The translations under genes were made by a program, and so were the position numbers. DNA of 64,000 nt, taken from assembly GCA_965649765.1 (NCBI GenBank), contig OZ287758.1:16740001-16804000 (forward strand), read 5' to 3'. Positions within the stretch are counted from its first letter, which is position 1; each line of letters opens with the position of its first letter. This stretch comes from Bispira polyomma (lineage: Eukaryota). Under the pieces are notes generated by a model. The model was not told where the DNA came from. It worked only from the letters and a program-made list of their open reading frames with translations, and made no database searches. Positions 6,801-56,021 of this stretch are shown here, piece by piece.

Positions 6801-7371
6801 AACTTAAGTTTACATTATATTAAGGGTAAAGTGTCGAAGCATGTTACTGAACTGTCAAGTAAAACAATGTGCATAGCATATCAAGGTTTATTGGTAGCAC
6901 AGTTCCTCGGAGTAGTGCCTGAGGAAACTCAATTAACCGAACAAGTCATAGAAAGACAATACTGTGGTTAAATATATTTTATTTCATATTTACAGCTACT
7001 ATTACTAAGATATTTATGTACAGTTCTTTGACATGATATACACTTTGTGTGAGCATAAGGTCCCCATAACTCAACTGAGTTTAGGACTTTAGGTTAAACC
7101 AGAATAAGTTTAAGTAACCCTAACTAATAAAGAAGTTGAATTTAGAAAATTTGATTTAAGTTGAAACTTAAATATGACTTTGAAGATTAACAAATTAAAG
7201 TTTGACTTAGGGTTTAAGTGCAACTTTAATTACATGAGTACAATATGTACTTTAATAATACAGGGGGACCTTATGCCCACAGTTAATTCATTTAGTTTAC
7301 AGGTAATTAATATGCTACTTGCAATGTTAAACTGACTAGATGTTACAGTCATGCCACCAAACCCAAAAATT

Positions 7372-8357
7372 TTAGTGCGTATCTTGTAGAATAGTTTTGA
7401 AGGAATCGGCAACTTGAGTACCAGCATTGGCAGAATCCGAAATGTAACGCCAGACGCAATCGGACGTCCAGGTGCCTTGCCTTTGGATGTCCTGAATGGT
7501 GACATTATTGTTAAAGGCAAACGTGGCACCTGAACGCCTGAAGGCGTGAAAGGTCAAGCCAGAGTACTGCGGGCCCAGCATTAGTAAGACATTCTTAAGA
7601 TGCCTGCGAACCCTAGTATCAGTGAGGGGAGTCCAAATGGCATTCTGCTTAAATTGAAACAAGGGCAAATCTTTCCCTTTGGGAGAAATAGACAGTATGT
7701 TTTTTAAAGCTTGAACCGGACATAAAATGGAATTGGTTAAAGCTGGTATGGTGAGCAAACGAACGGCATTATTGTTCTGAAGGGTTTTAGACCATTTAAC
7801 AATGAGGACAGCATACCCTGGCTTGAAAAGGACATCAGCCCTTGCAAGCTGCTTAAGAGGAGAGTAAGCAGCAACCGAATGAGCACAGAGGTTAGACAGC
7901 CTCAGAAAGGAAAAGAAACTGGTAAGATAAACTGCTTTAAAAATTTGACCCATGTAAGTGATGTCACACTTTATAATAAGAGACCTCAACAACTGGACGT
8001 CGAAAATTGACTTAAGTTTTACTTGCAATGGTCTATGCATTGCCAAAGCTCTATTATAATAGGTGATTCTTTTATCAGAAAAAGCGTCTACAGATATATG
8101 GAAGAGGACACACTTTGCCTTAATGGCAGAAAGATGATTAAGAACTTGACTTGCCGACACACCATTAAACGTTAAAAACTCGAAATATGCTAGGAGATAT
8201 AACACAGTCACCTTATTAGGAGGCCATGACATAAAGGCTCCAAACGCCAAGAACAGCCTGAACATTCTGTTGTAGGCTCTGTTAGTGGCAGGGGTGAAGG
8301 CAAGTTCAAGTCTGTCACAAGCTTTCTGCATCAAGGAGATGGCCACAGGTTGTATAT
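7372..8357 (-). CDS. Tyrosine recombinase (phage-integrase family) of YR retrotransposon; probable second exon
   Basis: Catalytic set present: FLRLSN (R), KWSKT (K), HAFRRSG (HxxR), GTW, WRY (Y). Preceded by an acceptor-like GTTTTCCAG. Confidence 0.93.
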
Positions 8358-8380
8358 CTGGAAAACATGACTAACACGTG

Positions 8381-10810
8381 CTATATAAGTGAGTTAACTT
8401 TTAATAAACTGTGGCAAGCAGGCAGCCACTGGACAGGCCCAGCTAACCTAAATAACAACAAATGGTTGGCTTCAGTTTCAGTCCATCTTGACAGCAGATC
8501 TGCAATTTTATTTTCTTTACCCAAAATATGTATGACAACAATATCAATATTAAACTTGCTAGCTAACATGTATATATTCCTAGCATACGTGGCTAAGTCC
8601 GGATCTCTGGTGCGCCCTGTCTGTAAGACACTTACAACTGCCTGATTATCACATCTGACCAATATTCTACGACCTTTCCATTTATGAACCCACAATTTTA
8701 AAGCTACCAGGATGTTAAGCATCTCCAAAGAAGCAATATTGACCTCACTCATTTCTGGAGGAATGTTAATTTGGTACACTTGTTTCTCAAAAATACCCCC
8801 CATTCCAGTAAGGCAGGCATCTAATTCAATCTCACCAGTTATGGGCTTAGGCATGAAGAAAGAGACTCCATTGAACTGTTCTGCAAAAGTAGTAAACCAA
8901 TTTAAGTCACGCCTGAATTCAGGGTTGATGGTAATATACTTTCTGGTGTAATTATCTCTTAACAGTTCCAGCATCCTATTCAAAAAGACACGAGCATACT
9001 TTACACATTTAGAAATATACAATAACAAGCCAAGTAAAGACTGGAGCTCCCTCTTAGTGCAGAATTTTTTGGATTTCCATTCCTGACACTTTTATTTAAT
9101 TTCACTTAATTTCTCAACCGGGATGGAAGTAGTACCACGAATGGTATCCACCACTATGCCCAAGCAGACAACCTGCGTGCTGGGAGGAAGCAATTTTTTC
9201 TGACTTACTGTCAACCCCAATTCTTGTAGCAGTTCTTGCAATCTCAGGTAAGTTTTTTGAATCTTGCTGGGAACAGAAATCGCCAAGAAATCGTCGATAT
9301 AGTTGTGGACATTATGATTTACTGAGTGCATTATGAAACGCACGCCATCCGAAATTCTCTGAAAAATCGTGCTACCTTTACGATATCCGAACGGCAGAGA
9401 TCTGTCCACATAATAGGACTTCCACTTTAGACCTAGGAGGTCAACGTCGCCAGGGTCAATGGGTACGTGACGGAACGCCCTACTTATGTCGACCTTGAAT
9501 ATCTCGCATCCTCTACCCAATTTTACCACCTCACTAGTGAGATTATCAATAGATGGGTAAGACAGCAAAAATTCAACACCCAAGTAAGAGGAAGGAGATG
9601 CCCCCACATTAACCGACCCCCCTTGAGGCCAACTTAAGTCTACAATTACTCTCCGGTTAATTGAATTCGGTTTGTGTCTCGTCATAAGGGGAGAACAATG
9701 CAAGCCCGGAATGGGAGGTTTGTCAAATGGCCCCAACATGGCTCCTAACTCACATTCTTCTTGCATATAAGCTTCTACATGCTGTGGATATTCCTCAGCC
9801 GATTTATGGTTAATCTCACTGGATTCCAGTTTAACTGAATGATCCACGTCTAGGGGGAATCCATATTTTATGAGGAGAGGCAATTGCCAATCCCAGTAAT
9901 TTTTAAGGTATTTTTTCCAACTCTCTGGTCTTAACTGAGAGGGAACAGGGATTTGCAACCCTTCATAATTGTGTCTCCCATCAGCCCGAATTAAGTCATG
10001 CATTTCCAATATGGAAAGTTCGGGCCCTCCCCCACCATGATCTGCAATCTCACAGCCCAGAGCAGAGAGAGGAGTGAATCCATATGCATATTGACTTTGA
10101 GCTTGCCATTTTCTGTAAGTAGGATTTGAGGCAGCCTTAGCTAACATGCCTTTCTTATTTACTTTCTGTTTCAAAGCACAAGAGTATTTATCGGAACATT
10201 CGGAACTTCCCGGGCTGTCTTCGGAAGCAGTTTTACTCCTGGCCTTGCCTCGGTTAACGGGCTTGTCTCTAGTAACAGAAAGGAATCGAACGGGCTCGTC
10301 AACATTTTCACTGTCATCGACCGGCAACGACATTAGAGCGGTATACCTGTTAGCAAGAGGGAGGACAGCCACACCCCCATTGACCCGCCTCGCTTCGCCC
10401 CCATTCAATCTCGAACAACTGACCTCCTTTGTTATCCCCTTGTCTTGTTTCGCACACGTGTCAGGCTTCACAATGGGTGTCAATTGGCTCACAGAGGTAC
10501 CAAGGGGCCTCACCAAGGTGTCACTTTTGTTATGTACTATCTTCACCTTACTCTTGTCAAACCTTGCCTGTTTTACCTGTACATTATTAACACTTCTATT
10601 TACACACCCATACTTTTGAACTGGGCCATTCTTTTGCAACGCCTGGCTATAGCTCAAGCCTGGTCTGGTGCCCTTTACATATTTACACATTTTCTGACAC
10701 ACAGACCTCTCAAATAATTGTACATCCTTAAATTTAGTATTATAGACAAACCTACTTTTTTGCTCACCCCTTTTAGCCACTGCATCAACGCAGTGGCCCC
10801 TTAGTTTTTT
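8381..10810 (-). pseudogene. pol: Pol (RT + RNase H) with a single in-frame stop at 9092-9094
   Basis: ORFs 9092-10780 and 8381-9028 are in the same frame. RT motifs KVDISRAF and YIDD; RNase H motifs ELDAC, EMLN, CDNQ, ADLLSR. Confidence 0.93.
10776..10810 (-). promoter_or_regulatory. Predicted -1 ribosomal frameshift signal (A AAA AAC, 6-nt spacer, 8-bp hairpin)
   Basis: GCA AAA AAC TAA GGG GCCACTGC GTTGAT GCAGTGGC. The -1 frame reads KKLRGHCVDAVAKR into pol. Confidence 0.8.
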
Positions 10811-11871
10811 GCCCCTTTCTTATGACATTCATTAGTCTTGTGGCTACCCTCACATGTCTCACAATGATGTTTATATAACTGACCTCCAGTATTGTGAGAG
10901 CTGGGAAATCTACAATTTCCTTCCTGATAAAAGCGACAAAACATTGCACCTTTACGACTGCCAGATTTACTGCTACTAGAGTTACCTAGCCGTCCATTCG
11001 CCCCAGAGGAATTTCTACTGTTCGACACATGGCGCTGAGCATGGGCTCTTCGGATTCGATCCATCTTAGTTAGCTCTAGCCAACCTAACTTATCCATCTC
11101 CATACTTGTCAATACGACTGCATGGCAGGCCTTAGCTGACTCCCAAGAAAAATCCTGGGCATCCTCCATAAGACCCCCCATGTAATCCAGCATGGCATTC
11201 TTCACTTCGATCGACTTCTCCTCTTGGGCGATCCGAGCGAAACCACACACCCATTGCAACACGGTTAACTCATCGTAGCTAGGCCGAGACTTAGAACTAC
11301 CCGTCAGCACATAATTTTGAGGCCAGGCGGTGACCTTCTTTACCAATACCTCATTCGCCCCACTACGCTGGGACTTCAGTTTACCTTGCAAGGTGGTCTC
11401 ATTCAACGTTTTGAGATCTTTCAATATCTGCTCCACTTGGAGCTGTATTAGGGCATTCTGGTTTAAAAAATCTATGCCAGGAATTATACTGTCGGACGTA
11501 GCGATAGATGGGCTCTTACCTACGTCAGCAGAGCAACTAGCAGGCCTGACAACACTAGAACTAATCAAACTACTATTTGCCTGAACGGGGACCTGATGAC
11601 TTGCCTGACTACTGGTAAGGTTCGTCGCCAATGCTGCCTTATTCCTCTGAACCCGCTGGTCCATTTTCACCATTAATTCGTTCATCGAGTGCAGTTGAAG
11701 TAGTATAGCATTGGTAACTGCATCGCCGGACTCACCGTTTGCGGGTTCAGTGTCTGAGGCAGCATCGATCTCCTCCCCAGAGACAGAGTCAACAATTTTT
11801 GCAGTAACGTAATTTCGCCCGACAGGACGCTCATGTTTGGTTAAGCATTGACTACAATCAAAGACAGGCAT
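10801..11871 (-). CDS. gag: Gag-like protein (356 aa from the ATG at 11871)
   Basis: N-terminal CxxC..HERPVG motif, GKLKSQR, C-terminal Cys/His knuckles. Homologous to 40270-41265. Confidence 0.88.
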   Translation of the reverse strand: MPVFDCSQCLTKHERPVGRNYVTAKIVDSVSGEEIDAASDTEPANGESGDAVTNAILLQLHSMNELMVKMDQRVQRNKAALATNLTSSQASHQVPVQANSSLISSSVVRPASCSADVGKSPSIATSDSIIPGIDFLNQNALIQLQVEQILKDLKTLNETTLQGKLKSQRSGANEVLVKKVTAWPQNYVLTGSSKSRPSYDELTVLQWVCGFARIAQEEKSIEVKNAMLDYMGGLMEDAQDFSWESAKACHAVVLTSMEMDKLGWLELTKMDRIRRAHAQRHVSNSRNSSGANGRLGNSSSSKSGSRKGAMFCRFYQEGNCRFPSSHNTGGQLYKHHCETCEGSHKTNECHKKGAKN

Positions 11872-13130
11872 GACTAGATGGTGTTTCAACTAAAATATTG
11901 TAAATTATAAAAACGTAAACACCATAAACAAAATGTCACCCAAACAAATTTTAAACTAGTTGTTGCTCTGCTGACGAAACGATAAAGGCGGGAGAATTTG
12001 AAAAAGGAGAGCCTTATATAGTCGTACACCATCCCATAATAGTAGAACAGGCTGGTACCCCAGAACTGAGGCCACGAACGCTGAGGGCGTTCGCTTACAA
12101 ATCTAGCAGTGTAACATGGTGTCAATTGATATTGAATCTGAACAACAACAAAAACCAGTAGAGATTAGTGTTTGCCTTGTTTGTTACAAAAAATAATTGT
12201 TTTAATTTATACTAAATTATCTGGAACCCGACAATGATTCTGATAAAATGGATTCCCTTTAGATGTAAATTAAATGTAAGCTTCAGACTAACATTATGTC
12301 AACAGGCTGCTACTAAATTTCTTTAACATGCTGACCACGTAAAGGCAGAAAAAAGCTTGATGATTAACTTGTTAACACAGGCAAAACTCCAATTCAGAAA
12401 ATGCTAGGGGTTCTTTAGTTACCCCAGCTGGTCTAGTCAGTAGGTTGTAAATGTTACTATATGTCCTGATGTGTATGTGGGCATTCACTTTATACTGTTA
12501 TCCTGACATTTCCATCTGTCAATCTTATCATAAATGAAATCATCAAGCCTGGACATGGGTTCAAACTCTATAAAATTTCAAGACATATTTCAAGCCTTTC
12601 GGCATGTTGAAAATAACCTGGGGATATCTACATGATGGGACTTTCCGGGGAAACCAGTTCTATGGAGATACTTGTCCACAGTTTGGGTACAAACATGGTA
12701 GTACTCTTTACAGTTTAGGATCTATATTAGATACATAATACAAGACCTTGGCTTTTAAGTTATGAATTATATTGTTAATTATATATGGTTTGGCTGAGTC
12801 AGTACAGCTCAAAAATCCTATCAGCCCCTCTTGTAATAGCACTGACATGGGTAAATCTACAAAACTGTCCATTTGACAGGTTAGTTTTCTTTTGTCTGTA
12901 TGTCCAACCTTTCCACCCATGTGGTCTCACTGTTTGATCCTCCCAGGCATTTGTGCGAAGCGGATACATGTTTAGGCCTCCCATTTATATTGAGAGGCCA
13001 TCGACACTGTGGGCGCCATCAGGTTGACACATGGATCGTCTGATGCCCCCCGCCCCTCTTTCGAGTCAGGGTGAGGAAGCATAGGCTCTCCTTACTGACA
13101 GTAAAATCAGGTGTCTCGAGCATAGTGCTA

Positions 13131-20583: not shown

Positions 20584-22443
20584 CAGTCCAAAGTGGTGTG
20601 AAAAGTTATAAGTTAATAAGTAAGTTTATTATAAGACAGTAAAAGATTGCATTTGAGGTTTTTATTTACATGTTAGCTTATGTACAGGTTGACAATCAAA
20701 GTCAGTTAAAATTTCAGGATGGAATTTTAAGCCCCATCACGGCTACCATAAAATACAGCCAGGTCAAAAATAAAAACCCATAACAAAGCTAATAATAAGC
20801 TAAGAGACAATCACAAATATAAAGAATAGTGTAAACCCCTCAGTCACACCAGACTCTGGATTAGAACCAATAAAATAACCTCAAAAGAGGAAAATACATT
20901 TAAATACATTGATTACTATAAAAATGACTATCATTAACATCACCTTCAACTAGTTCATTGTGTGAATAATGTACTGAAATATACAACAAAGTTACTTTTG
21001 GTGACTACGATACTAAGAACAATTTCAGGGGATAAACTTCCCTGTTTACTGTAAATTCTGACATGTATTTGTGATACATGGATACTAATTGACGCTAGGT
21101 GATCGTGTGCAAAAAGGTGCCCTTGTGGGGACCACACGTGTACCCAAGTTATCGTCATTGTGTCTAAATTGGTACGTTGTGTTACTTATTCAACAAGTGG
21201 TATTAACTAGCTCAGTAAGCGTCCCTTGGATTGTTAACTTGAGTCATATGAAGCTGACCACTCTAATGTCGCGTATGTTATAACCCCATATGAGTCAATG
21301 TTCAACTATGCTTATAAATTGAAAATAAGTCCATACAAGAGAGTACATGCAACGTAGTAACAGCAGGACCCCGGGCCTTGGACACCAACCGCCTAGCAGG
21401 GTGAAGTCCAACCTCTCAGAGCCCCTTATTCCACTCTGGAACCCCAGTGGTGAACTCAGAGGAGGGAGTAAGAAGGAAGGACCCCAGACCCACACGGCCC
21501 GGAGCCCGGCCGCCACGTTGCCGTCAAACCCGCCTGGATAACCTTATGCATCAGACAACCTTAAAAATTTCTATAAATCTTTAATAACGCTGTGGTAAGG
21601 GGAGGTGGTGGGCTTCAATTTTCTAAATGTCCTGTTCACAGGTGAAAACACAAATTCAATATGGAGGATAGCTATCCTAGCTTAGGGGTCACTAATAGCT
21701 AATGCTGTGATTGGACAAGGCCCAGATGGACAGAAAGTTGGATAATGCTATTGCATTCGCTAGGGATTAAGGTAGTGTGATAGAAAAAGGAGGTTGGACT
21801 GATCTAGCAGTCCCCTGGGGTGGACTTGCTATGCACAGTCCAAAGTGGTGTGAAAAGTTATAAGTTAAAAATAAGTAAGTTTATTATAAGACAGTAAAAG
21901 ATTGCATTTGAGGTTTTTATTTACATGTTAGCTTATGTACAGGTTGACAATCAAAGTCAGTTAAAATTTCAGGATGGAATTTTAAGCCCCAAGCCCAACT
22001 AAGAAGGAGGGATAGCCGCAGCAAAGGTGAGAGGCACCACTGAAGCAGCTTGGGAGGTCTTCTGTAGGTAGGTCCATACAGCTGAAGACCTCCACAGGCC
22101 ATGGGACATAATATTCTGCAGTGATACGTTTTTATTGAAAGCAAATGTGACCCCCGACCTCCTAAATGTGTGGAACCCGTGTGAATGGTATGGAATGCCT
22201 ATGTGTTCTAAGACTCTCTGTAATGCAACTCTCACATGTGTCTCTATGACTGGGTAAAATGGTGGTGAGTTAACTGCAAACAGTGGTGCAGATGGAGGGA
22301 GAAGCCTAGACAAGATAAGCTGCTGTATAGCCCTTACTGGACATAAAATTTGGTTTTGAAGTGCAGGAATTTGTATAATGTGGGAGTCTGATCTGTTTTG
22401 AAGGTTCTTAACCCATTTCAAGATGACATTGCAAAGATAATAT
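20584..22443 (-). mobile_element. 5'-truncated split-direct-repeat YR retrotransposon (YR-B1-A2-B2) flanked by a 36-bp duplication
   Basis: Absent from copies B (~47150) and C (~62405). Near-identical direct repeats at 21836-21991 and 20584-20736. Host 36-mer duplicated at 20548-20583 and 22444-22479. Confidence 0.9.
21999..22421 (-). pseudogene. C-terminal fragment of tyrosine recombinase
   Basis: KWVKNLQ, LCPV, HTFRRSG, HGLW, WTY motifs. Confidence 0.9.
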
Positions 22444-27500: not shown

Positions 27501-28845
27501 TCAATATCTCAGCAGACAGAATATAATATTGTATCATTAAAAACTGACAACATCAAATTAAAAAACTGTGCCATCATGTCAGCTCACTTAACATCATAAT
27601 AACAGGCAGTTATCAGGTCATAAAATATATGAAAATTTTATAGGCTTTTTGCTTCAGTCAATCAATCACATGTATTGACATAACAGTGCTGTGACATTGC
27701 ATTAAACAGTCAGTAAATTAACTTCTCCAAGATCACTATTTACTTACTTTAAATGAAGCTTCTAGTCCTGACCTCTGAAGAGGGCTTCTGTGGTAAAAAC
27801 TGAACAAATTTGTCAACAATCATGTCAGCTTATCATGTTGCTTACTATTCTTTAACACATCCTTAAATGTCAGCTCAAGTCTATGTACAGGACACTGGAC
27901 CATTACAATAGAATGACTCCATTCCTGCCTCATCTTGGCAACGACACCATTCAGTTTTCCTATGTTTACACTTGCACCGTCCGCAGCAGAGGCAACAACT
28001 TTCCTGTAATAATTTGGTACGGTTTCATCATCATACTGTAAGTCCTTCAACGAATCCTTAATTGCTGTCAGTATTCCTTGAGCATCAGACTTTCGGGTTG
28101 ACTGCATTGACAAGAAACTAGTTTCAATCACACCACCAGTACACCATCGCACATACACAACTTCATTCTCCTTCACTGACACATCTGTCGAACTATCCGA
28201 AATTACTGTCAAAAATTTAGTGTCATCTAGTTTTTTCTTCAAATTCTGTACTTCGACCTCAGCAATAGCCCAAACAAACTGACGGCAGGCTTTGTCATTT
28301 CTGTAGGTGTCCCCAACATGTAACCCCTTTCGCTGATCCAGTTATAACATCCAGTTGAAGTTAGAAAAAGGGCGGTTATTTTTGGCTAATGCATGTGCGT
28401 TTCGAAACAATATTGATAATCTTTCAAATGCAGCAGAGTTCAATTTCTCAATTGCCTTTTCTGCTATAGTGTCCCCTGGTTTTTTACTTCTACCTTCAAC
28501 ATGCACTACTGCCAGTTTATGGCCCTGGCTGGTATCATGATCCACAAGGACTGACCTTTTTAAATTACTACATCCAGTGACAAAGTTGCCCTTAGAATAT
28601 TTTCTAAATAAACCCCTATCTGGCAAGTTGGAAATGCTGAGGTCCCCATAAGAGGCTCTACATGGTTTGCAATAAACCTTTGATTGTCCCTGGTCATGGA
28701 GTAACCATGAAAATTCCTGGTTCCATGAGGCCTGGAATGTCATTTTCCTCTTATTCCTATAATACTCTCTATCCCTATCTGGCTTTTCTTCTTCAGTCTT
28801 TCTTTTCTTTTCAGGGGGTTGGGTACAACCAAGGTACTTCCACAT
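24525..28845 (-). pseudogene. Six-exon hAT (ZNF862-like) transposase pseudogene
   Basis: Exons 28845-27748, 27402-27280, 26780-26566, 26242-26028, 25527-25404 and 25020-24525, with GT-AG introns in compatible phase. Motifs DSSTD, DGASVN, CPVHRLEL, TRW, ECERGFS. Four in-frame stops. Confidence 0.9.
25788..25912. repeat. Short minisatellite in a transposase intron
   Basis: About 3 imperfect copies of AAGTATTATAAGAC...CCAACACCAATGTATT. Confidence 0.75.
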
Positions 28846-37200: not shown

Positions 37201-40095
37201 TTAATTAGAAGGCAGAGGCAATTACTAATCATACCAAAGGGAGTTTCATATGGTTCCAGAATCAAGACTAAATGTTCTTGTTTTGAAGACAGTTGTAGGA
37301 GACCTTATTGTGAATGGAAATAGTGGGGTAATAATCAAAGATAATCATTAACAGTGTGAGTAATATATCACTTACACGCTCTCCCTCCAAACATCAAAGT
37401 ATTGATGAGAAGAGGTAAAGAAAAGATGACACTGCAACAGATACTAACTTGTGTGTAGTTGTAGACTTAATGAGAGTGGGGAAACTACATCTACCCCCTC
37501 ATACCATCTTAATAAAATTTATTGGACTGAATTAATAGCTAATTATTGCTTTAAAGTGAATCTCAATAGAATTGAGAGTGAGACTGGCAGATGTGGGGTG
37601 TTTTATCACTGGGCAGGATCTTACAGGTTAAGAAGGAGTTGTGTGTTCTTGACTATGTTGTTACCTCTGATGGGATATGATGCCTGTATACTGTATGTCA
37701 AGAAATATTACAGAGTGTTTGCAGTTTCAGAAAGATATTTTATTTTTATTCAAAAATATGTCTGTTGGCGAAGAAATAGTTTCTAGCAGTAATTTTTTAC
37801 AGTAATTTTGCAAATCCCCCATTTGATATTTTGTTTTACTGCAAATAAAGTGCAGTTCAAATGGTGTGCTGTGATGTATTACTGTGACCAGGGCAAAAGA
37901 AATAGTTAAGAAATCAATCTAGTGGAGAACGTTTTTTAAAAGTAGGGATTTGTGTAAAAATACATCTTCTAGAAGATAAGATATTTTATAATGTACCCAG
38001 GGCCAGCTAGTGTCTTTTTTTCTGTATTTCTCACATGCATGTGTCATAATTTTCAGGTTTTGACAGAAACCCTGTCACAGAAGAGATCTCTTCATGCAGA
38101 TTAATGTACTGTGTGGCATTTAACTGTGCTACAAAAGCTGACAAAAACATCAGAAAGATATTAAAGTAATCTCACCAAATTGTCTTGTAGGCGTACAGTA
38201 CAGTGATTCTATCACAAATAACTATTTGTAGTGAAGCTTATTTCAAATTATTTGTGCACAAGAAATGGCAAGGTATTGTGTGGTTTGGTTTTTAAAAAAC
38301 TGCTGTAAAATAACTACTGGTTAACTAATATAGAACTCACACTTTTACTGGCTATTTTAATGTTCATAACCACATCTCCTTTTAGAGTCACAACTCTATT
38401 TTAAGCATTTATGCAGTGCTTAATTAATACTTCATCCTTCAAAGCATTTGTTCTCCGAGAAAAGATTGTATTACAACATAGCAATGGTTGTCATCAGTAG
38501 GTAATGGTATGTTTACATCTTGCCCAAGGATGTTTTCCTCTGTAACCATTATGATGTTACTAGGAGTCGGAGCAGGGACCTTCTGATCAACAAACCAATT
38601 ACCTTACGACTTGGCCATTGGAGACCACAAATTGTCTACACTGATAACGTTGCACATTTAAAGTGAGGTTTGTGAACCAGAGTCAAGGTGGACGTGTCTG
38701 AGATAGGCAAGTTAACTTTAGTGTAAGAGATGTAGCACTCCCTTGTCTCAGATCTAACAACTAGACTATAGTCTCAATTGAGGTACAATTGATGACCATG
38801 TGGCAGCCAACAGGATGATGAAATACTGGGCCATTTTGGTTAGTTTATACATTAGTCTATTTCAATTTGTTCAGTGAATGTTTATCAAAAAACCCTTCTT
38901 TTCATGAAATGAAGTAATTTGATATGGGAAGCAACCACTATTAGGGAATTAATAAACATATTGCAGTAAATAAAACATACATATCTCTATGTTGCAGGAT
39001 TGTCACAAACTATATAAATGTATCTTAAAACTCTTATTTTACATCACTGATGTTTAAATCATGCTCATAAACTATTACATTTATTTTCTACAAAATCATA
39101 GTTTGTATAATGTTTTTAAATGTCACTGAAATATATTTGCACACAAGGTAACCCAGCACATTGAACTTAAAGTAGCGAAGCTGAAAAACAACAGACACAA
39201 TATTCAGTGACAAGAAGATGTAATATACACTACAGTCTTCATCAGAAAAAGAAAGGCTGGCGATAAACGATGTGGTTATCCATCAAATCTAGTGTCACAG
39301 TGAATCATGCGTTCTGAGTGTGTTGATTAATGGCATGCTAGTTTCTGCAGGTCTACTCCAACCACTCCATTTATCTACTGTTAATAAACAGCTCAGGGCT
39401 GGTATTCACAAAGATTCTTTGTCTTAAACTTTTGTCTCCAGCAATTTAATTTGCTAAAAATATTTTTGTTTGTTTATTATGTGTTTCAAAATGCAAATAT
39501 CTGAAAAACCATATCTGAAATAGCTGAATAACTAATGTATATTTCAAAGCTTCACTTAAAATTGACAAGATGTATTGATTTGAATTGAAGCAATCAACCT
39601 TTTTTGGAACCTAGTGCAGATATAACAGGGTTAGGAAACCTCTGCACAAGGACCTGTGTGATATGGTAATCTCCCAGGACAGTCTTCAACCCTATTAAAA
39701 TTTAAACAAAGAAATACCAAACATGGAAGATGTCTCTTTTTATGGCTTAAACATAGCAATTTACAGTCTCTACAGTTTGTATTTTTGTCATAGTGCGGAA
39801 AAATGAGGCAGGTTTAAGCCTGTGGTAGTAAGTTGTGATAATAAAAGTTTTGCCTGATCTCACCTTTAAAATCTTAAATTATGTTGTGATTGCTAAAGTT
39901 TTCAGAGCAGAGAGTCAGTTTTATTTGTAACTTTCAAAAAGTGAATACAAATTTATATAATAAAGAACAATAAAGGGAATAGGATATATGATAGATATAC
40001 ATTGTATATCTATGTATAACTGTTGGTGTATAATTTTGGTGGGCTGACGCCCTTGCGACAGCCCCCCTCAGTTCTGGTGGCAGGTCACTGGGGGG

Positions 40096-40162
40096 CCAAT
40101 TAGGCCACCTGGGGTCACGGGGGCAAGTATAAAAGGGATTGCCGCCAACAGGCGCCATCATT
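40096..40162 (+). promoter_or_regulatory. Putative internal Pol II promoter of the YR element
   Basis: CCAAT at 40096-40100, TATAAAA at 40128-40134, Inr-like TCATT at 40158-40162. The other element has TATATAA at the matching position (12014-12020, minus). Confidence 0.6.
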
Positions 40163-40269
40163 AGTTAAAAACAGTTCATAGATACAAGTGTTTTTACAAT
40201 TGGGGCTTTTACTACCCAGGGCTTTTACTACCTAGATATTGTTTTACATTTTTAATTGAATGTGTAGTC

Positions 40270-41265
40270 ATGCCTAAAGAATACCCGTGTAGTGTATGTT
40301 CTGGTCGGCACGAACGTCCAGTTGGGAAGAAATGTAAATTTAATCCGTTGGACAGCGTCGCTGATGAGGTGGCTGCCGTTGATCCTGCTGTGCCTGCTGT
40401 TTCTGATTCCGTATCTAGTTTGATACTTCAACAACTGGTCGTGATGAATGAAAAGATGGACAGCATGGATCAACGAGTACAAGCTACTGAGGCGGCGCTG
40501 TGTAAACCCAGCGCACAGGCATGTAACACAGTTTTTAAATCTGTATCTAATGTCCCTAGTGTTAGTGAACCAGTGGTTGAGGCCGTTGTGCCCTCCCTAG
40601 ATTACCTGCGTTCAAATTCCGGCTTACAGAGTCAGGTAGACCAGCGCTTGCTGCAACTGCAACAACTCAATGATTTAACGGGAGGTAAACTGAAATCCCA
40701 AAGAGGTGGCGCGGAAGCTCCCGTTAAACGTCATGTTGATTGGCCACAAAATTTTGTCTTATCTGGTGTAAAAAAGGTTAGACCCACTTATGATGACCTT
40801 ACTTTGGTCCAGTTCGTCTCCGGGTTTGTTCGCTGTACGCAAGAGCAAAAAGAGTCCTCTGTCCGCGAGGCCATGTTGGAATATCTGGCATGTCTGATGG
40901 ATGACGCCCATGATTTTTCGTGGGACGCCGCCAAAGCCGCTCACGCCATTTTGTTAACCAACATGGAAATGGACCGATTGAATTGGACGGATGTCGAAAA
41001 GGTCGACCGGGTAAGGCGCGCTCATGCACAGCGTCATGTAACGTCCTCAGCTAGTGGGTCTGGCCTTTCTAAAAGCAATGTTGGCAGTAGGGGTAAAACC
41101 TCGGTGAAAACAGCTGGAGTAAATTGTCGGTTCTTCCAAGAAGGAACGTGCAAATTTGATGCCAGCCATCGCACTTCTGGACAGTGGTTCAAACACTGCT
41201 GTGAGCGCTGTGATGGCACGCATCAAACCAAGTTGTGCTCCAAAAAGTCGGTGTCAAAAAACTAA
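40270..41265 (+). CDS. gag: Gag-like protein (331 aa)
   Basis: CSVCSGRHERPVGKKC N-terminal motif, coiled-coil-like segment, GKLKSQR, and C-terminal CRFFQEGTC..H / HCCERCDGTH..C. Confidence 0.9.
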   Translation: MPKEYPCSVCSGRHERPVGKKCKFNPLDSVADEVAAVDPAVPAVSDSVSSLILQQLVVMNEKMDSMDQRVQATEAALCKPSAQACNTVFKSVSNVPSVSEPVVEAVVPSLDYLRSNSGLQSQVDQRLLQLQQLNDLTGGKLKSQRGGAEAPVKRHVDWPQNFVLSGVKKVRPTYDDLTLVQFVSGFVRCTQEQKESSVREAMLEYLACLMDDAHDFSWDAAKAAHAILLTNMEMDRLNWTDVEKVDRVRRAHAQRHVTSSASGSGLSKSNVGSRGKTSVKTAGVNCRFFQEGTCKFDASHRTSGQWFKHCCERCDGTHQTKLCSKKSVSKN

Positions 41266-41290
41266 GGGGCCACTGCAGTATTGCAGTGGC
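41256..41290 (+). promoter_or_regulatory. Predicted -1 ribosomal frameshift signal
   Basis: TCA AAA AAC TAA GGG GCCACTGCA GTAT TGCAGTGGC: heptamer at 41256-41262 and a perfect 9-bp stem at 41269-41290. Confidence 0.82.
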
Positions 41291-43796
41291 TGCTAAGAAA
41301 CTTGTACATAAAACCTGCTCTAGAGTTGTATATAATTCTACTTTTAGGGATTTTAAACTGTTTGATCATGTGTGTTGTAAATATAATGTGTGTGCTGGAC
41401 CCCGAGTTAACAGGTCATACCGGGACGTGTTGAAACAGGGCCTTGTGGTTACTGATACCAAGATTTGTGGAAACCGGGAAATGGGAAAAGTTAACACTGT
41501 TTCTGTTAATAAAACTCCCCAAGGTAGCAAACTCGTGTTCCATAATTCATCATTGCACAAGGTGTCGGGAAGAAAGCATTCACCCGTGAAGGTGTTAAAT
41601 ACATCAGCTGACAGGCGACGTGAGAAAACAAATCACCAAAAGGTGTTAAGAAAAACACCTTTGGGTGGTGTGAAAACATCCTTGAATAGGCGGGTCAGTA
41701 ACAATGCAAACCGTGTGTTACAAAACAAACCAATTGTGTCCAAAACAATTGAACTAAGTGATGGCGAAGGGTGCCCTAAACTTCTGGTTTCTCCGAGTGT
41801 GAAAACAATTGGCGCGGGTACCACTCCAAGTAATGCTAACAATAGTGGGTTTCGCCTTCCCATTCATAACCGGTTTAGTTGTTTAGACATTCCTGGTGTA
41901 GAACTTCCTGACTCGAGTGACACGTCAGGTAAGGTCGATTTCACACCTAATCCACCACCTAACAAGAGATCTAACCCGTGTGATGACAAGTATGTCCTGG
42001 ACCTCTCAGGAGGCCTTGATAAAAGACAGCGCTTAAATGCAGCTAAAGATAATGTGACCTATAAGTTGTGGGATATACAGTATAGTGGAAAGTATGGGTT
42101 CATACCCACTAGTTCCTGGGGTACCCCAGTGATTGATTGTTCCAATAACCAATTGATCACAGACGTGTTTACACTACATAAGTCCCTTAAATTGGATGGG
42201 AGACCAAATTATAAGGGTTTACAAGTCCCCATACACACCCAACTGACGGTCCCTGCCTGGGAAAAGTACTTAGCGAATTATTGGGATTGGGAACTCCCCT
42301 TACTGATAAAATTCGGATTTCCTCTTGACTGTAATGAAGAACACGAGTTCAAGTCTGACTTGAACAATCATGCTTCAGCCAATCAATATCCTGAACATGT
42401 GAACCATTACCTGAAAGAAGAATGTTCTATGGGTGCTATGTATGGACCTTTCGTCCATCCCCCAATTGATGATGTGCACACATCCTCCTTTATGACTAGA
42501 GACAAATCAAGCTCGGTTAACCGACGAGTCATAATCGATCTGAGTTGGCCCATCGGTCATTCGGTTAATGCAGCCGTGTCATCGAGTTCGTATCTGGACA
42601 AGGAATTTGTACTTACTTACCCTTCCATAGATGACATAACCCAACAAGTGTTGCAAAACGGTAGGGGCTCCTTGCTATTTAAAGCGGACATTAGTCGCGC
42701 ATTCCGTCACGTGACCATAGACCCCAGAGACATCAATCGCCTGGGCTTATACTGGGACGGCTACTATGTCGACGGCTCGTTGCCCTTTGGCTACCGACAC
42801 TGTTCAGTGATTTTTCAGAGAATTTCTGACGGTATAAGGTATATAATGGAAGGTGAAGGTCATCAAATCACCAACTATATAGACGATCTGTTATGTTCTT
42901 CTGTTCCCTCAAAAATCTATAAAACGTACCACCGACTGCAGGCCCTTTTGGCCGAGTTGGGTTTGACTCTCAGTAAAAAGAAGCTGGTTCCTCCAGCCAC
43001 CCGGGTAACCTGCCTAGGCATAGTTATAGATACAGTTCGGTTCACTACATCGATACCAGAGGACAAACTAGCTCAGGTTCAAAAAATATGTGGCAATTGG
43101 AGTGATAAAAAGCAGTGTACTAAGCGGGAGCTCCAATGTTTATTGGGTTCTTTGCTATATATTTCTAAATGCGTGAAGTACTCACGATTTTTTCTGAATC
43201 GGATGTTGCAACTCCTCCGAAGCAATCACCACAAAAGAAGTATGAAAATTAACCCTGAGTTCAAAAAGGACCTTAACTGGTTCATTGAGTTTCTCCATAA
43301 ATACAATGGGGTGACATTTTTTCATCATGCCCCCATTACTGACATTGTAGAGTTGGATGCCTGCCTAACAGGCATGGGAGGAGTGTATGACAAACAAGTA
43401 TATTACCTTCCCATTCCTGCTGCTATGCAGAAACATAATATTGCTTCATTGGAGATGCTTAACATTCATGTGGCTTTGAAATTGTGGGGCAAATACTGGC
43501 AAGGACGTAGACTGTTAATTAAATGTGATAACCAGGCTGTTGTAAGTGTCCTTACTCATGGTAGAACTAGAGATAGCGAATTAGCCCTGTACTCGCGGAA
43601 CATATTCATGCTGGCTAGCCAGCTCGATGTAGAGATACAGGTGGTTCATATTCTAGGAAATGACAATACCACTGCTGACCTCTTGTCTCGCTGGACAAAT
43701 TCAATTAAGGATAAGGTTCTCTTACAGGAGCTGGTGGGCAATGTCCAATGGTGTGCCGTGACAGAGGACCACTTACTGCTTAATCACCACATTTAG
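41256..43796 (+). CDS. pol: Pol (RT + RNase H), probably translated as Gag-Pol by -1 frameshift
   Basis: Open frame 41235-43796 with KADISRAF, SLPFG, YIDD, ELDAC, EMLN, CDNQ and ADLLSR. No downstream methyltransferase domain. Confidence 0.95.
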   Translation, partial: KKLRGHCSIAVAAKKLVHKTCSRVVYNSTFRDFKLFDHVCCKYNVCAGPRVNRSYRDVLKQGLVVTDTKICGNREMGKVNTVSVNKTPQGSKLVFHNSSLHKVSGRKHSPVKVLNTSADRRREKTNHQKVLRKTPLGGVKTSLNRRVSNNANRVLQNKPIVSKTIELSDGEGCPKLLVSPSVKTIGAGTTPSNANNSGFRLPIHNRFSCLDIPGVELPDSSDTSGKVDFTPNPPPNKRSNPCDDKYVLDLSGGLDKRQRLNAAKDNVTYKLWDIQYSGKYGFIPTSSWGTPVIDCSNNQLITDVFTLHKSLKLDGRPNYKGLQVPIHTQLTVPAWEKYLANYWDWELPLLIKFGFPLDCNEEHEFKSDLNNHASANQYPEHVNHYLKEECSMGAMYGPFVHPPIDDVHTSSFMTRDKSSSVNRRVIIDLSWPIGHSVNAAVSSSSYLDKEFVLTYPSIDDITQQVLQNGRGSLLFKADISRAFRHVTIDPRDINRLGLYWDGYYVDGSLPFGYRHCSVIFQRISDGIRYIMEGEGHQITNYIDDLLCSSVPSKIYKTYHRLQALLAELGLTLSKKKLVPPATRVTCLGIVIDTVRFTTSIPEDKLAQVQKICGNWSDKKQCTKRELQCLLGSLLYISKCVKYSRFFLNRMLQLLRSNHHKRSMKINPEFKKDLNWFIEFLHKYNGVTFFHHAPITDIVELDACLTGMGGVYDKQVYYLPIPAAMQKHNIASLEMLNIHVALKLWGKYWQGRRLLIKCDNQAVVSVLTHGRTRDSELALYSRNIFMLASQLDVEIQVVHILGNDNTTADLLSRWTNSIKDKVLLQELVGNVQWCAVTEDHLLLNHHI

Positions 43797-43878
43797 ATAT
43801 TGCTTTGTCTGGTTGCATGGTATTATGTTGATCAACCTTTACAAATGTTACTTTGTCTGCTCTGTGTTTGTGTTATAG

Positions 43879-44867
43879 CTAGAACTCCCCTGCAGCAGTT
43901 ATTATATCTAAATGCAACGAAGAAGCTTCACCTGACCTTCTGCAGGTCTACAGACAGATCTTATACTGCGATGTATAGGGTGTACCAAGCTTATGCATCC
44001 TTCTCGGATCTGCCTTGTGACCAGGTGACAGCTATTGATCTTCTTGCTTTTTTAGAATTGTTACACTTTAACTCTGTAAAACCTGCCCATATGGCCAATT
44101 ATTTATCTGCTATTAAAGCTAAGAGTATTGTATACAATGTGCCCATTCTTGCCTTCAGTGACCCTCGCTTGGCTTACTATCAAAAGTCTGTCCAATTAGC
44201 TGCCCCCTTAAATGTTCAGCTCAAAAAGATTATAGACATACCTCTTCTGACTAGTATTGTCAATGTCTCCAACACCACTTACATGGGTCCTATCTTTACA
44301 GCTGTGTATTTGGTCAGCTACTTTTCCTTCCTGAGGTTATCCAACTTAGTACCTCATTCCTGTCTTCAGTTTTCTGCTTTAAGACATCTATCAAGGGCTG
44401 ATGTTATGTTTCACAGGGACAAAGCTGTCCTTTTGGTAAAATGGTCCAAAACAATGCAGATTAATAATCAGATTAGACTTATTACTATCCCACGTTTGGT
44501 GGGTTCCCCTCTTTGCCCTGTGGGGTCACTGCAGGCTATTATGGCTCTTACTCCGTCTGAACCTAATTCACCCTTATTTCAATTGAGAGACAAATCTCAC
44601 TGGGTTCCGCTTACTGACACCCGTGTCCGCAGGCATTTCAAAACGATACTTGCCAGGCTCCAGTTGCAGGATTCTGGCCTCACACTGCACGCTTTCCGAC
44701 GTTCGGGTGCCACTTTTGCCTTTAACCATAACGTCAGCATTCAGAACATCCAAAAACATGGCACTTGGACGTCGGATTGCGTGTGGAGGTATGTTACCGA
44801 CTCAGTGGATGCGGGCCAGCAGGTATCGGACACATTTCGCCATCATCTTGCTACTTCTTCTTCCTAG
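43879..44867 (+). CDS. Tyrosine recombinase; probable second exon
   Basis: FLRLSN, KWSKT, HAFRRSG, HGTW, WRY. Homology to the other YR starts at ARTPLQ, directly after TGTTTGTGTTATAG. Confidence 0.93.
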
Positions 44868-47800
44868 CTTCCTACTTGCTGGGTTTGGGTGTTTCTACTC
44901 AAAATTTAGTCTATATTTTCATATTCTAGATAATTATGTAACTTTTGCATTACATGTAGTCACATGCTAGTCATGTATAGTGTCATATAGAATTTAAATT
45001 ACTATTTCACTTGCTAGTCATTTCATGTTACAACTATAAAGTTAACTTCACAGAGTAGTATTTTATTTCCTAGTAATTGTATGCTACAACTAGTAATTCA
45101 ACTTCATGAAATAACTGTTTCATTAAAAGGTAATAGAATCTGTAATTAACTGCAAAATTACAACTTAACTCTTCTTCTATACAATTTAAGGTCACCTCAA
45201 TTTCTTTAATTCCCCTATGGGTTAAAATTTTAGTATACTAACCTGTATTTAAGGTGATCTTTAGCCCCCTTTTGTAGTCTAAATTATAAGATCATCTCCA
45301 TTTATAAGTCCCCTACGGGCTTTGTAATTTCACTTATTTAACTGTGTTGGGGTGACCTTATCTTGTTCTTTGAAGTTATGTAAAATATTATTATTACTTT
45401 CACTCAATTTAGTATGACTTAAAGTTACAAATTATCATGACCTTAAGTCACGTTGTATATAGTAGTTTAACATAGACTAACAATAAAATATTTTACCGCA
45501 TTCTGCTTACTTACTATCTTGCCTTCTTGACCTCTGACCCTTTGGCCTGTCACGCGGGGGAATGAAGTAGATTTTGACTTTCTTAACTATACTCAAAAGT
45601 TGAACACTGATTTAGACCCTAATTTCTACATAATTTATCATAATTATAAATTATTATAAGAAAAAACAGAAGAACTGGTAGGAGCAAAGAGTGTGAGAAA
45701 CCATCAAGTCCATGTGTCACTTTAAATCATGGCTTTGTCAGGACTGTTTTGATTTATGATGTGGCTAATTCTTCAGGTCCCTCTAACTACTCCATTTATT
45801 TTACTATTTATAAACAGCTCAGATGTCGGCTGTGATCATTTCTTTTGTTTAATGAGTGGCAATGCTGGAGTGAAGTGCTCTCTAAATCTGTCAAAATGTC
45901 CATATAATCTCAGCTGGCACCTCTTCTTACATCCACCAGTCTTTTAATTTAACACGGCTTAAGAACCTTCTGATTGAGTGGCTTTTTACCAGTGTGAATT
46001 AGTATTTTTTTTCCTCCTGATGTAAAAAAATGAATAGATCCAGTGAGACTTCACTTGGTTTTTTTTTTGTTATTTGTTTAGCAACCCCACTTTCCCCAAA
46101 GAAAACACTTAATGGTGGGTAAATGGTTAGACATTTGAGGAAAGTACATTGGGAGTATTAAAAGTTAATGACAAGGAGGTTCAATAGTTACTTGTTTGAG
46201 GTGCAAACATGTTTATCAGCTGTAAATGTTTAGAAGTGCCGTGAATGCATATGGGTTGAGTTTTTAGTTTTATTGTTTCTTCAAATGATAGACACTGGGT
46301 TTTCTACATATCAAAATACTAAAAAAGCATGAAATTAATTGTAAAGACAAACTGTGGGGCTTTTGTGTCATTTCTGCCCCTGCGTTGTACAAAGTGTTCT
46401 ACTATTTCCAAGTGTAAGACCTAGAAAATGTAATAAATACAAATGTCCTCTCTACATGACTATGCGCAACTCTATAGCATCACTTCTGATTGGTTTTTGT
46501 CACAATCTCATCACTCCACTGCTGACACATCTACAGTTAGTGGCATCAGCCCATTGCTCAAAATGAAAAAAATGCAGTGATTGCAAGTTTCACATTTCTG
46601 TAGCTTTTTGTACAATGTGTAAATATATTGACAGCTGGTAAAAAGTTTAACCAGTAATTAATTAATTAGTCACGCCACACAGCTTTAAAACAGTTATTTC
46701 AAGAACAGACTTGTTTCCGACAACAAATTTGTCAATTATTGATTGTTCACATAGCTTATGTAGCATTACCATTGAGAAAGACAGTATTTCTGTCTATTTT
46801 CTGAAAATTTTCTGTGAATATTAAAGATATTCAGAGAAATAAAGAAAACAACACCAACATTCGACAACCAAAGAGCCACTACTAGATGTCTTCAAAAATA
46901 TTAATTTACCAACAAGTTATTTTGCACTCTAGATAAGATCTAATTAGATGACTGTCAATTAGCAGTCTGGTCATTTTAGCTGGTCATCCAAGTCAAGCAG
47001 CATGTATTAAACACTAAAAACATGCACAACTTTAACACTGATGACAATCACCTGTTCCTGTGTAAAAATTGTGCATGTAATTAAAATGGACCTAGGTTTG
47101 CATATGCCTTTTATACTTCCAATTATCATTGTATATATTTAATTATGTAGAATGCAAAGAGTAAAAAGTGGAGAAGGGTTAAGCAGAAACCAGGGGGCTT
47201 AATCTATCCTTAGCCTTGCCTAAAGCTAAATTCATATTTTAGCTTACTTACAAAATTTCAAATATGTACACATTAAATAAACTCGTACAACTACACTCCA
47301 GAAAGGGCATTGGAATAAGGTACATTCAGATACATTTTCTTTTGTTAGTTCTACTTCCACTTCTTGATTCATCATTAATAAAACTTGATTTTGTAATAGG
47401 ACACCACTGCACAAGAGAAACACCTTATACCATGATGTACATCTCTTGTTTCATACCAATGTAATAACATATCCTGACATCAGACTTTGCGTTTTAGTTA
47501 TTACTGTGTGATTAGTAATAACTCTGCTTTAACTCTTGGTTTACTGAACCAGCATCTTAGCTATTAAATATTTTAAAATACCCCAAAATTTAATACATTA
47601 ATCAACAAAACATGATAGCATGAGTCAAACTTTACACCTTAATTGTTCACAATATTGATCAAAGTCAAAGTTTAGACCTTTGTGACATCACTCAAGTTAA
47701 ATAACTGCAGCGGTCTTGTTCAGAGTCTCCACAATGTTGACAAATGGAGAATTTGCGCTGTCACAGGTGAAATATACTGATACACTTAGTGGCTGATCTA

Positions 47801-55051: not shown

Positions 55052-56021
55052 TAGACATCACGCCCTAATAGGGGTCTGATCCTTCAGTTGGCTCAAATAA
55101 CTTTCATTATGTACTACCTTAATCCCTGGTGGCCAAATTGAAATAAGTTTCACTCTGTCCATCCACCCATACTTTTAACCATTCCTTTGTCGTGTTTCAC
55201 AATAATTTTCCCACATTTTACCCGCCATTATTACTCTCGACACTGAAGTATACACATGAGAAAATTGGCCACGTCCTCCCCTTTACCACAGCAATTTAAG
55301 GTCTTTTCATGTAACTGTTATCTCGACACACTTTATAGTCTGCTTCCTGGGCCGAATGGGGGGCTGATTCAGTCTTCTTTAACTCTCCCCTGAGCATCAC
55401 GTCTAGGGAGCTAGGGTTGAAAAAGGGCTCTGAGAGGCCGAATCTCTCCATGCCAGGCGGCTGGTGTCCAAGGCTCTCGCGGCCGACTTCGAGGTTTAGA
55501 GTAACAGTTAAGATAATTTATATATGTTGTAAAATATACACTTCGACGTTACAGGGTTGAAAGGGTTGTAATTTTTTGGCTAGTCCGTTTGTCATCACGA
55601 CTCATGTTTGTAAATGTTATGAAGGAGCACATGATGGTTCCGAGGATAAAAGAAATGTTCAGTGAGTCCTCTAACGAAGGTGCTGCACTGTTATATACTC
55701 TATATACCAAAGGGTCTGTCTTTTGTTTTAGTTGTAACAGTCATGAGTAATAATTAAATATTTTTTAAGATTTTATATTATTTTTAAGAGTTCATATTAC
55801 TGTTAGAATAGTATTATTGTTATGAGTGTTTTAAAAATTAGATTTACAATGTTCAAAATATATTTTTAACCCTTATTTTAACATAAACTAATGTCCTAAC
55901 ATGTACAGAAAATAAAACCTCAAACTAATGGAATTTGACACTTATCTTGCATCATATAAATTAACCCTTCAACATAGAAATTACCTCTGCTTCTAATTTA
56001 TCTTCACATTTTGGCAAACTG
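55052..56021 (+). mobile_element. ORF-less solo A-B unit of a YR retrotransposon (970 bp)
   Basis: Empty site AAGCCTG|TGTTTG in copy A (~35888-35900). Shares ACTACCTTAATCCCT, CCTCCCCT(T)TACCACAGC, GGGCTCTGAGAGG, TGGTGTCCAAGGC and TAACATGTA..AAAACCTCAAA, in order, with A2-B2 of 20584-21835 (minus). Ends ACTG. Confidence 0.85.

Follow-up and report, generated by a model that had tools for sequence, protein, structure and literature searches.

A two-stem fold predicted at the B/A junction of Ngaro retrotransposons in Bispira polyomma

Ngaro retrotransposons belong to the order DIRS and are bounded by split direct repeats, A1-ORFs-B1-A2-B2 (PMC9210276, PMC8547959). The elements described here share with published Ngaro the gag-like, RT/RNase H, tyrosine recombinase (YR) gene order, the split direct repeats and the occurrence of solo A-B units (PMC8547959), and no target duplication is seen. 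They would depart from the standard model, stated for DIRS-1, in which the YR acts on a double-stranded circle (PMC7192593). DIRS-1 of Dictyostelium is a member of the same order for which single-stranded cDNA intermediates have been shown; this cDNA is antisense, and the authors of that work continue to prefer integration from a double-stranded circle, the junction of which could not be amplified and may, they note, be self-complementary (PMC7192593). DIRS-1 differs from Ngaro in its inverted terminal repeats and ICR, in a trinucleotide shared with the target and in its antisense cDNA, and the part of the DIRS-1 text drawn on here makes no comparison with attC or CTX phage (PMC7192593).

Recombination of a folded single strand is known from integrons and from CTX phage. 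The attC site of integrons consists of an R box, an unpaired spacer of 5-6 nt on each arm and an L box, and a nucleotide skew in its unpaired parts reportedly helps to select the strand (PMC5027507). In CTX phage, the folded single-stranded attP(+) and a double-stranded target undergo one exchange by XerC/XerD, which replication resolves (PMC3442271, PMC4792948), a course like that proposed below for Ngaro, with no need for extrahelical bases or the I2 domain (PMC4792948). CTX relies on the host XerCD and one specific dif site, whereas Ngaro has its own YR and many weakly defined sites. The SE elements (SE-6945/SE-6283) are likewise tyrosine-recombinase elements that move one specific strand, but they are DNA elements of bacteria that have two recombinases and lack an RT (PMC9345347).

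Here, we analyse hairpins in a 64,000-nt stretch of the genome of Bispira polyomma (GCA_965649765.1, contig OZ287758.1, positions 16,740,001 to 16,804,000), referred to as the window. The element family to which they belong is a known one; neither the junction site nor the mechanism was found in print, and no description of a folded Ngaro junction was found, in the literature searched; the founding Ngaro papers and reviews (Goodwin, Poulter, Butler) may hold an earlier mention.

Four Ngaro-type elements and their hairpins

The source genome spans 1.035 Gb in 75 contigs, with ~35% GC. Much of the window from 15747 to 64000 is taken up by a degenerate tandem repeat (unit ~20 kb, 75-95% identity between units), which houses three of the four YR elements found (A, B, C and D; Table 1) and provides empty paralogous sites. 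Structural tests assign all four window hairpins to Ngaro-type retrotransposons (A1-ORFs-B1-A2-B2). The window copies are themselves reduced forms of this layout; relatives of all four show the full split direct repeats A1-ORFs-B1-A2-spacer-B2 (L158, L035, L163 and L167/L168), L158 being the full form of family A, with a B1/A2 junction, and L163 a full copy of the family of element C, to which that element is 98% identical.

Elements A and B carry the ORF order characteristic of Ngaro: ORF1, labelled gag-like from its position, then RT/RNase H, then YR. ORF2 ends ~35-75 residues beyond the RNase H matches, and Pfam scans of 12 ORFs gave no match to a methyltransferase domain after RT/RNase H, in agreement with Ngaro and unlike DIRS-like and PAT-like elements. 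A DIRS-type arrangement of ITRs and ICR was considered and rejected, self-comparisons giving direct repeats only. The fronts of the YR ORFs (43797-43850 and 8370-8330) lie close behind the RT stop and have no obvious start codon. Elsewhere in the window, an ORF fragment at 28345-28848 on the minus strand, with a zf-C17orf113 match (4.3e-8), is probably a DNA-transposon remnant, and a 79-bp inverted repeat at 59972-60169 (76% complementary, arms 40 nt apart) is possibly a small foldback element.

Table 1. Coordinates of the four elements in the window and of their parts
Feature	Position	Strand	Basis or remark
Element A, Ngaro copy, A-ORFs-B form without A2-B2	6900..12099	-	ends TGTAAG ... GGAACTG fixed across copies
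ORF1 of element A	10801..11889	-	gag-like by position; no Pfam match
RT/RNase H frame of element A, one stop inside	8381..10819	-	RVT_1 1e-9, RVT_3 4.9e-6
YR ORF of element A	7372..8370	-	aligns with YR set; no Pfam match at 0.01
TATA-like box in A1 of element A	12013..12020	-	seen in sequence; putative
Inner stem, family A (first hairpin of the preliminary description)	12074..12094	-	inverted repeat, folded computationally
Right outer-stem arm, family A, CAGTTC	12063..12068	-	complementary to element 3' end; 6 consecutive pairs in natural junction L158
Left outer-stem arm, family A, GAACTG (final six bases of B)	6900..6905	-	element end
Element B, Ngaro copy, A-ORFs-B form	40037..45564	+	A 40037-40199, B 44886-45564
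ORFs of element B	ORF1 40165-41265, RT/RNase H 41214-43796, YR 43797-44867	+	Pfam/ORF reading; YR model matches Cre-type folds
Inner stem, family B, with A.A mismatch	40041..40064	+	inverted repeat, folded computationally
Right outer arm, family B, CAGTTC	40069..40074	+	imperfect pairing with 3' end: A.G mismatch at position 3
Left outer arm, element B 3' end, GGAATG	45559..45564	+	element end
Element C, 5'-truncated Ngaro copy	20584..22443	-	YR remnant, B1 ~21989-21836, A2 21835-21614, spacer, B2 ~20737-20584
B/A junction fold of element C (predicted), sole complete one in the window	21794..21843	-	outer stem of 8 bp, 21843-21836 paired to 21801-21794; internal loop; inner stem at 21831-21805 with one bulged A
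Element D, solo A-spacer-B unit, no ORFs	55052..56021	+	comparison with relatives and empty site
Stems of element D	inner 55057..55080, right outer arm 55085-55092, left outer arm 56014-56021	+	inner stem weakened by copy-specific change

A preliminary description of the window had reported a folded hairpin shared by four YR 5' ends. All four inverted repeats lie where it placed them, every stem begins 4-5 nt past the A-repeat boundary, as its claim of a near-terminal position implied, and CCTCAGTTCTGG is common to the first two hairpins (families A and B). It had also noted that the stems differ in sequence with pairing kept, and arms indeed prefer their own partner in a 4x4 duplex matrix of the four families. 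The A-repeat boundary is fixed in 30/30 copies of family A and 30/30 of family B (best-scoring matches, biased to intact copies). Folded as DNA, the hairpins at 12068-12099 (minus strand) and 40037-40070 reach -8.7 kcal/mol (z -3.4) and -11.4 kcal/mol (z -4.5), respectively, with 0/200 shuffles as good in either case. Taken alone, those at 21800-21835 (minus strand; z -1.8, 10/200 shuffles as good) and 55053-55087 (z -1.5, 19/200) are not significant, and a separate conserved 3'-end hairpin is not significant in any window element (15, 187, 15 and 200 of 200 shuffles as good).

Two of the four hairpins proved not to be 5' ends of coding elements: the one at 21831-21805 starts an internal A2 of a 5'-truncated copy, with B1 directly upstream in 28/30 loci of the family, and the one at ~55057-55080 belongs to a solo A-spacer-B unit without ORFs. 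Nor is the CCC run, taken earlier as a shared feature, conserved; it is present in 6 of the 17 non-redundant families of this genome and in 0/6 outside families. The D copy in the window owes its CCC to a change specific to that copy, GACC being the reading in most relatives. The hairpin does lie upstream of the TATA-like box in A1 (12020-12013 and 40128-40135 in elements A and B); however, since A is repeated inside full copies as A2, this position does not make the hairpin a DNA-only structure, as had been argued, and the hairpin in A2 would lie within the transcript of full-length copies.

The TCAGT that follows the hairpin is present as described, but its complementarity to the element's 3' end had been missed. 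Because TCAGT is the reverse complement of that end, the plus strand at a B/A junction can form an outer stem of ~6 bp. The hairpin is thus the inner half of a larger two-stem fold predicted on the plus strand at the B/A junction; such a site is not a 5'-terminal hairpin, as it requires the 3' end and exists only where B meets A.

Geometry and covariation of the predicted fold

Across families, B/A junctions are laid out as NNACTG, the crossover, ~5 nt, the inner stem, ~5 nt ending in T, and CAGTNN. In the predicted fold, a ~5x5-nt internal loop separates the inner stem from an outer stem of ~6 bp, the end of which coincides with the crossover. In element C, where the crossover falls between 21836 and 21835, it reaches -13.7 kcal/mol (z -3.8, 0/200 shuffles as good).

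Family diversity was sampled by searching for a Pfam family, an approach that may be biased towards some clades: 80 of the 102 PF00589 matches in this genome were taken as 9.8-kb stretches, yielding 32 YR clusters, of which ~14 were excluded for want of a pair of ends. Placement of the junctions relied on repeats or on ends common to copies, independently of the fold. The resulting set of 28 comprises 18 natural junctions and 4 split-end pairs from this genome, together with 6 junctions from metagenome contigs, the YRs of which are 31-38% identical to the query. These six represent the families with a usable junction among 44 metagenome loci (repeats or cross-copy ends fixed the position in 5, and likeness alone in L288); a scan of 16 further metagenome loci gave unconfirmed candidates or nothing, and the remainder were too short or redundant. 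Statistics were computed on 17 + 6 families after near-duplicates (D3, D4, S205, S252) and G203, which has no register, had been dropped. Candidate two-stem folds downstream of the YR were noted at other metagenome loci (L282:7720, L307:4460, L312:1797, L285:846 and L286 ~3810), and no relative of the YR alignment was found in viral contigs. A loose junction scan of 3.2 Mb (both strands, redundant) recovered the junctions along with many unrelated matches, and gave 8 in 0.76 Mb of shuffled DNA; it is not used as evidence.

Covariation in a wider sample, the check proposed in the preliminary description, holds across 23 families, with the outer stem ending at the crossover. Outer positions 1-4 are paired in 91/92 cells (23 families). 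Positions 5-8 are paired in 40/68 cells of the 17 own-genome families, compared with 20.6 ± 3.2 when ends are permuted (0/20,000), and the cognate duplex sum of the inner arms is -150 versus -82 ± 7 permuted (0/20,000), permutation tests of this kind ignoring relatedness, so that the counts overstate certainty. Position 5 takes the pairs A-T, G-C, C-G and T-A, with 8 pair-state changes on the YR tree (median YR identity 33%); one family has changed both sides of outer position 3 (arms AATG/CATT), and the six outside families have AATT/AATT in place of ACTG/CAGT with the geometry unchanged. The base preceding the right outer arm is T in 23/23 families. Along the unfolded strand the arms are 27-40 nt apart, with all values from 29 to 35 occurring, and the loop between the stems is constant (4-6 by 3-5 nt) in junctions that pass the two-stem rule. 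This rule, defined after the data were seen, is passed by 19/28 junctions versus 14/21,500 interior positions (0.07%). When 15 distinct natural junctions are aligned with MAFFT, 87% of pairs are formed, versus 66% shuffled and 20-45% slid, and the covariation score is 0.52 versus 0.16 shuffled; doubly changed pairs in the same alignment number 5, which 173/500 shuffles reach and which is therefore not exceptional.

The pattern is not uniform. Among the 9/28 junctions that fail the two-stem rule are those of B, which has an outer mismatch, and of F1, the inner stem of which is weak, both being young and abundant families; G203 lacks an outer stem in register. The inner hairpin alone ranks in the top 5% of element windows in just 9/23 families. 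No extrahelical base is constant: a bulge occurs in some families and an A.A mismatch in others, and A, F5, F8, G209, G220 and E308 have neither. A known RNA family or ribozyme at the junction was considered and rejected, as the 7 loci searched gave no Rfam family match. Conservation of the fold is well supported, and we hold it with high confidence; we infer that the fold also forms in vivo.

As attC is described in the sources cited above, the likeness comprises a predicted outer stem, an unpaired ~5x5 loop, an inner stem and a variable tip, with the crossover in or at the outer stem; in both, structure is kept while sequence varies, and one junction class only is seen. The two-box geometry with a 5-6 nt unpaired spacer appears as a predicted fold in 19/28 junctions. 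The attC core RYYYAAC/GTTRRRY, with its crossover in AAC, does not appear, the arms being ACTG/CAGT, AATG/CATT or AATT/AATT, nor do two or three extrahelical bases at fixed positions. The Ngaro cut would fall at the stem edge, beside the conserved unpaired T, not one base inside the stem, and the Ngaro site, unlike attC, is split between both ends after insertion, in an element that carries its own RT. The Ngaro YR model (mean pLDDT 82) also differs from IntI in being nearer to Cre (Z 18.7, rmsd 3.6, 274 aligned) than to the integron integrase IntI 2a3v (Z 15.8, rmsd 3.8, 252 aligned); the integron-specific domain is not among its top fold matches, which excludes nothing. The Ngaro site is attC-like in geometry but is not an attC. 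The earlier suggestion that the hairpin may belong to a folded, attC-like YR site is thus favoured by geometry and covariation more strongly than when it was made, while the arguments from the 5'-end unit, the CCC run and the TATA box fall away.

Insertion scars, strand choice and competing readings

Elements B and D were inserted without base gain or loss, judged against empty paralogous sites at 19082/19083 and near 35895, respectively, and a shared core or target duplication of at least 3 bp was found in 0/30 copies. The first five bases are intact at 53/53 free 5' ends of YR-selected copies, and A's first five bases come after just 1/51 curated free 3' ends; hence the second junction class (heteroduplex) of a two-strand exchange is not seen. 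An equivalent end-pattern test has been applied to integron attG sites (10.1101/2022.09.11.507474). A single junction class (53/53 5' ends, 50/51 3' ends) fits, indirectly, an attC-type single exchange; such an exchange could also work with an unfolded double-stranded circle, and the end pattern alone does not prove folding.

Among 132 left flanks, position -2 is A/T in 131 (T in 89), A occupies -4 in 71, and T or G occupies -1 in 93. This mainly one-sided target bias, A-N-W-K up to the cut, mimics the ACTG arm, the 3' arm of the element. The 132 right flanks show a weaker bias (+1 A in 66, +2 G in 45, TG at +1/+2 in 21 where ~7 are expected), and a weak mirror-image right arm 6 bp off (+8 A/T in 105/132, +10 T in 62/132) is borderline after multiple testing. 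Short degenerate genomic targets are shared with IntI, GWT for IntI1 corresponding to A-N-W-K here (10.1101/2022.09.11.507474).

Element C lies between copies of a 36-bp host duplication (22479-22444 and 20583-20548, minus strand) that is single-copy in the paralogous units. The duplicated segment is the host DNA following the element's 3' end; the 3' junction is clean and the 5' junction truncated, a scar that fits a half-finished one-strand reaction. A similar ~85-bp repeat surrounds L167, a copy with a clipped 5' end. Host duplication as a rule for truncated copies was rejected, being confined to C and L167 and found in 0/13 other truncated or unresolved copies.

Several forms of copy accompany these insertions. 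Among YR-selected copies with both ends (L201-L280), 26/41 have the A-ORFs-B form and 15 are full, and 8/10 young family A copies are without A2-B2; A-ORFs-B copies may have arisen by direct insertion of circles with one junction or by recombination between B1 and B2. Tandem A-spacer-B arrays with exact B/A junctions occur at L235:375-4244, L276:6909-9729 and L202:6805-8913 (element orientation), that of L235 upstream of the ORFs. In L162, otherwise a full family A copy, the B1/A2 junction at ~5505 (element orientation) has been deleted via a short shared word, and the whole fold with it. Ngaro copies are nested within other Ngaro copies at L100, L144, L169 and L240.

Tyrosine recombinases hold the 3' phosphate on the binding-arm side of the cut. 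With the enzyme on the 3' phosphate at the arm side, only the plus-strand fold places the B/A phosphate there, from which we infer that the plus strand is the one used. The target bias lies on the same side as the predicted plus-strand cut. The plus strand folds more stably in 19/24 natural junctions, by small energy gaps; wobble pairs in the outer stem are G.T in 10 cases versus A.C in 2, 9 of the 10 G.T pairs falling at one position in related families and so not being independent, and the loop bases (n=230) include 83 G versus 18 C.

On balance, we think it probable that the folded plus strand is cut once by the Ngaro YR and that replication or repair completes insertion. Reverse transcription would yield DNA with a B/A junction, the plus strand of which would fold into two stems; the YR would bind both stems of the folded strand and cut at the inner edge of the outer stem, i.e., at the B/A phosphate. 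The cut strand would then be exchanged once with a duplex chromosomal target, cleaved after A-N-W-K, and replication or repair would resolve the single-strand junction. CTX integration shows a folded strand to be usable without the integron-specific domain (PMC4792948). The antisense polarity of the single-stranded DIRS-1 cDNA counts against use of the plus strand; a folded plus strand might come from displaced, single-stranded plus DNA or be extruded as a cruciform by a supercoiled double-stranded circle.

The rival that survives best, which we nevertheless regard as unlikely, is that the fold acts in the RNA or first cDNA, marking B1/A2 for RT template switching and end regeneration, while the YR uses an ordinary double-stranded circle. 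B1/A2 is internal to full-length elements and would be transcribed, and the plus-strand G.T/G.U wobble suits RNA equally; yet the outer stem does not extend past the recombination phosphate, and the inter-stem loop has the size of a recombinase spacer. The abundance of the imperfect-fold families B and F1 and the single-stranded antisense cDNA of DIRS-1 (PMC7192593) speak for such a role, whereas mimicry of the outer arm by the chromosomal target at -2 and -4, not required of an RNA signal, and the lack of an Rfam family match at the 7 loci speak against it.

Somewhat less likely again is the absence of any fold, the outer arms being inverted duplex YR sites that covary via protein specificity and the inner repeat the site of another protein. 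Inverted arms are normal for tyrosine-recombinase sites, loxP for example, and the YR model is Cre-like; but the arms of a tyrosine-recombinase core site are 6-8 bp apart, whereas those of Ngaro stand 27-40 nt apart at all values from 29 to 35, out of helical phase, and constant spacing exists in the folded form. The weak, borderline mirror-image arm 6 bp away in the target would suit duplex arms; the persistence of inner-arm pairing while sequence turns over would not.

A third reading, in which a cruciform from the double-stranded circle undergoes two successive exchanges without overlap homology, as with Tn916/Tn1549-type integrases, we hold to be improbable. Copies missing A's first 5-7 bases and carrying them after B would be expected, and these were seen at 0/53 5' ends and at most 1/51 3' ends, even if both strands fold with similar energy, target duplication is absent and the Tn1549 integrase is among the structural matches of the YR model (Z 14.1). 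A last reading, which takes the hairpins for products of chance or functionless inherited remnants, is very improbable and already largely refuted: short hairpins are common and two of the four in the window are not significant alone, but two covarying stems stand at a fixed place in 19/28 junctions versus a 0.07% background, in a pattern that spans YRs of 33% median identity and two unrelated arm sequences.

Implications for tyrosine-recombinase retrotransposons

In the literature searched, integration of tyrosine-recombinase retrotransposons is a model only, with no biochemical demonstration. The fold offers a defined substrate of ~50 nt, predicts both the strand and the scissile phosphate, and comes with natural compensatory variants, so that oligos and a single purified protein would suffice to test the question. 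In practice, it can also serve to locate exact Ngaro ends.

Tentatively, and as a possibility that we rate as doubtful, Ngaro could be a eukaryotic integron-like system, in which A-x-B cassettes use one folded site and one strand exchange into minimally specified DNA. If so, A-ORFs-B copies, solo A-spacer-B units and tandem arrays would be direct reaction products, and the YR would be a structure-specific, homology-free, nick-only animal integrase carrying 5-7 kb.

If the preferred reading, a single cut of the folded plus strand by the YR, is true, it would account for insertion without target duplication or overlap homology, and the Ngaro YR would be a eukaryotic recombinase guided more by structure than by sequence. 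Recombination of folded single strands, as in integrons and CTX phage, would then also operate in animal genomes.
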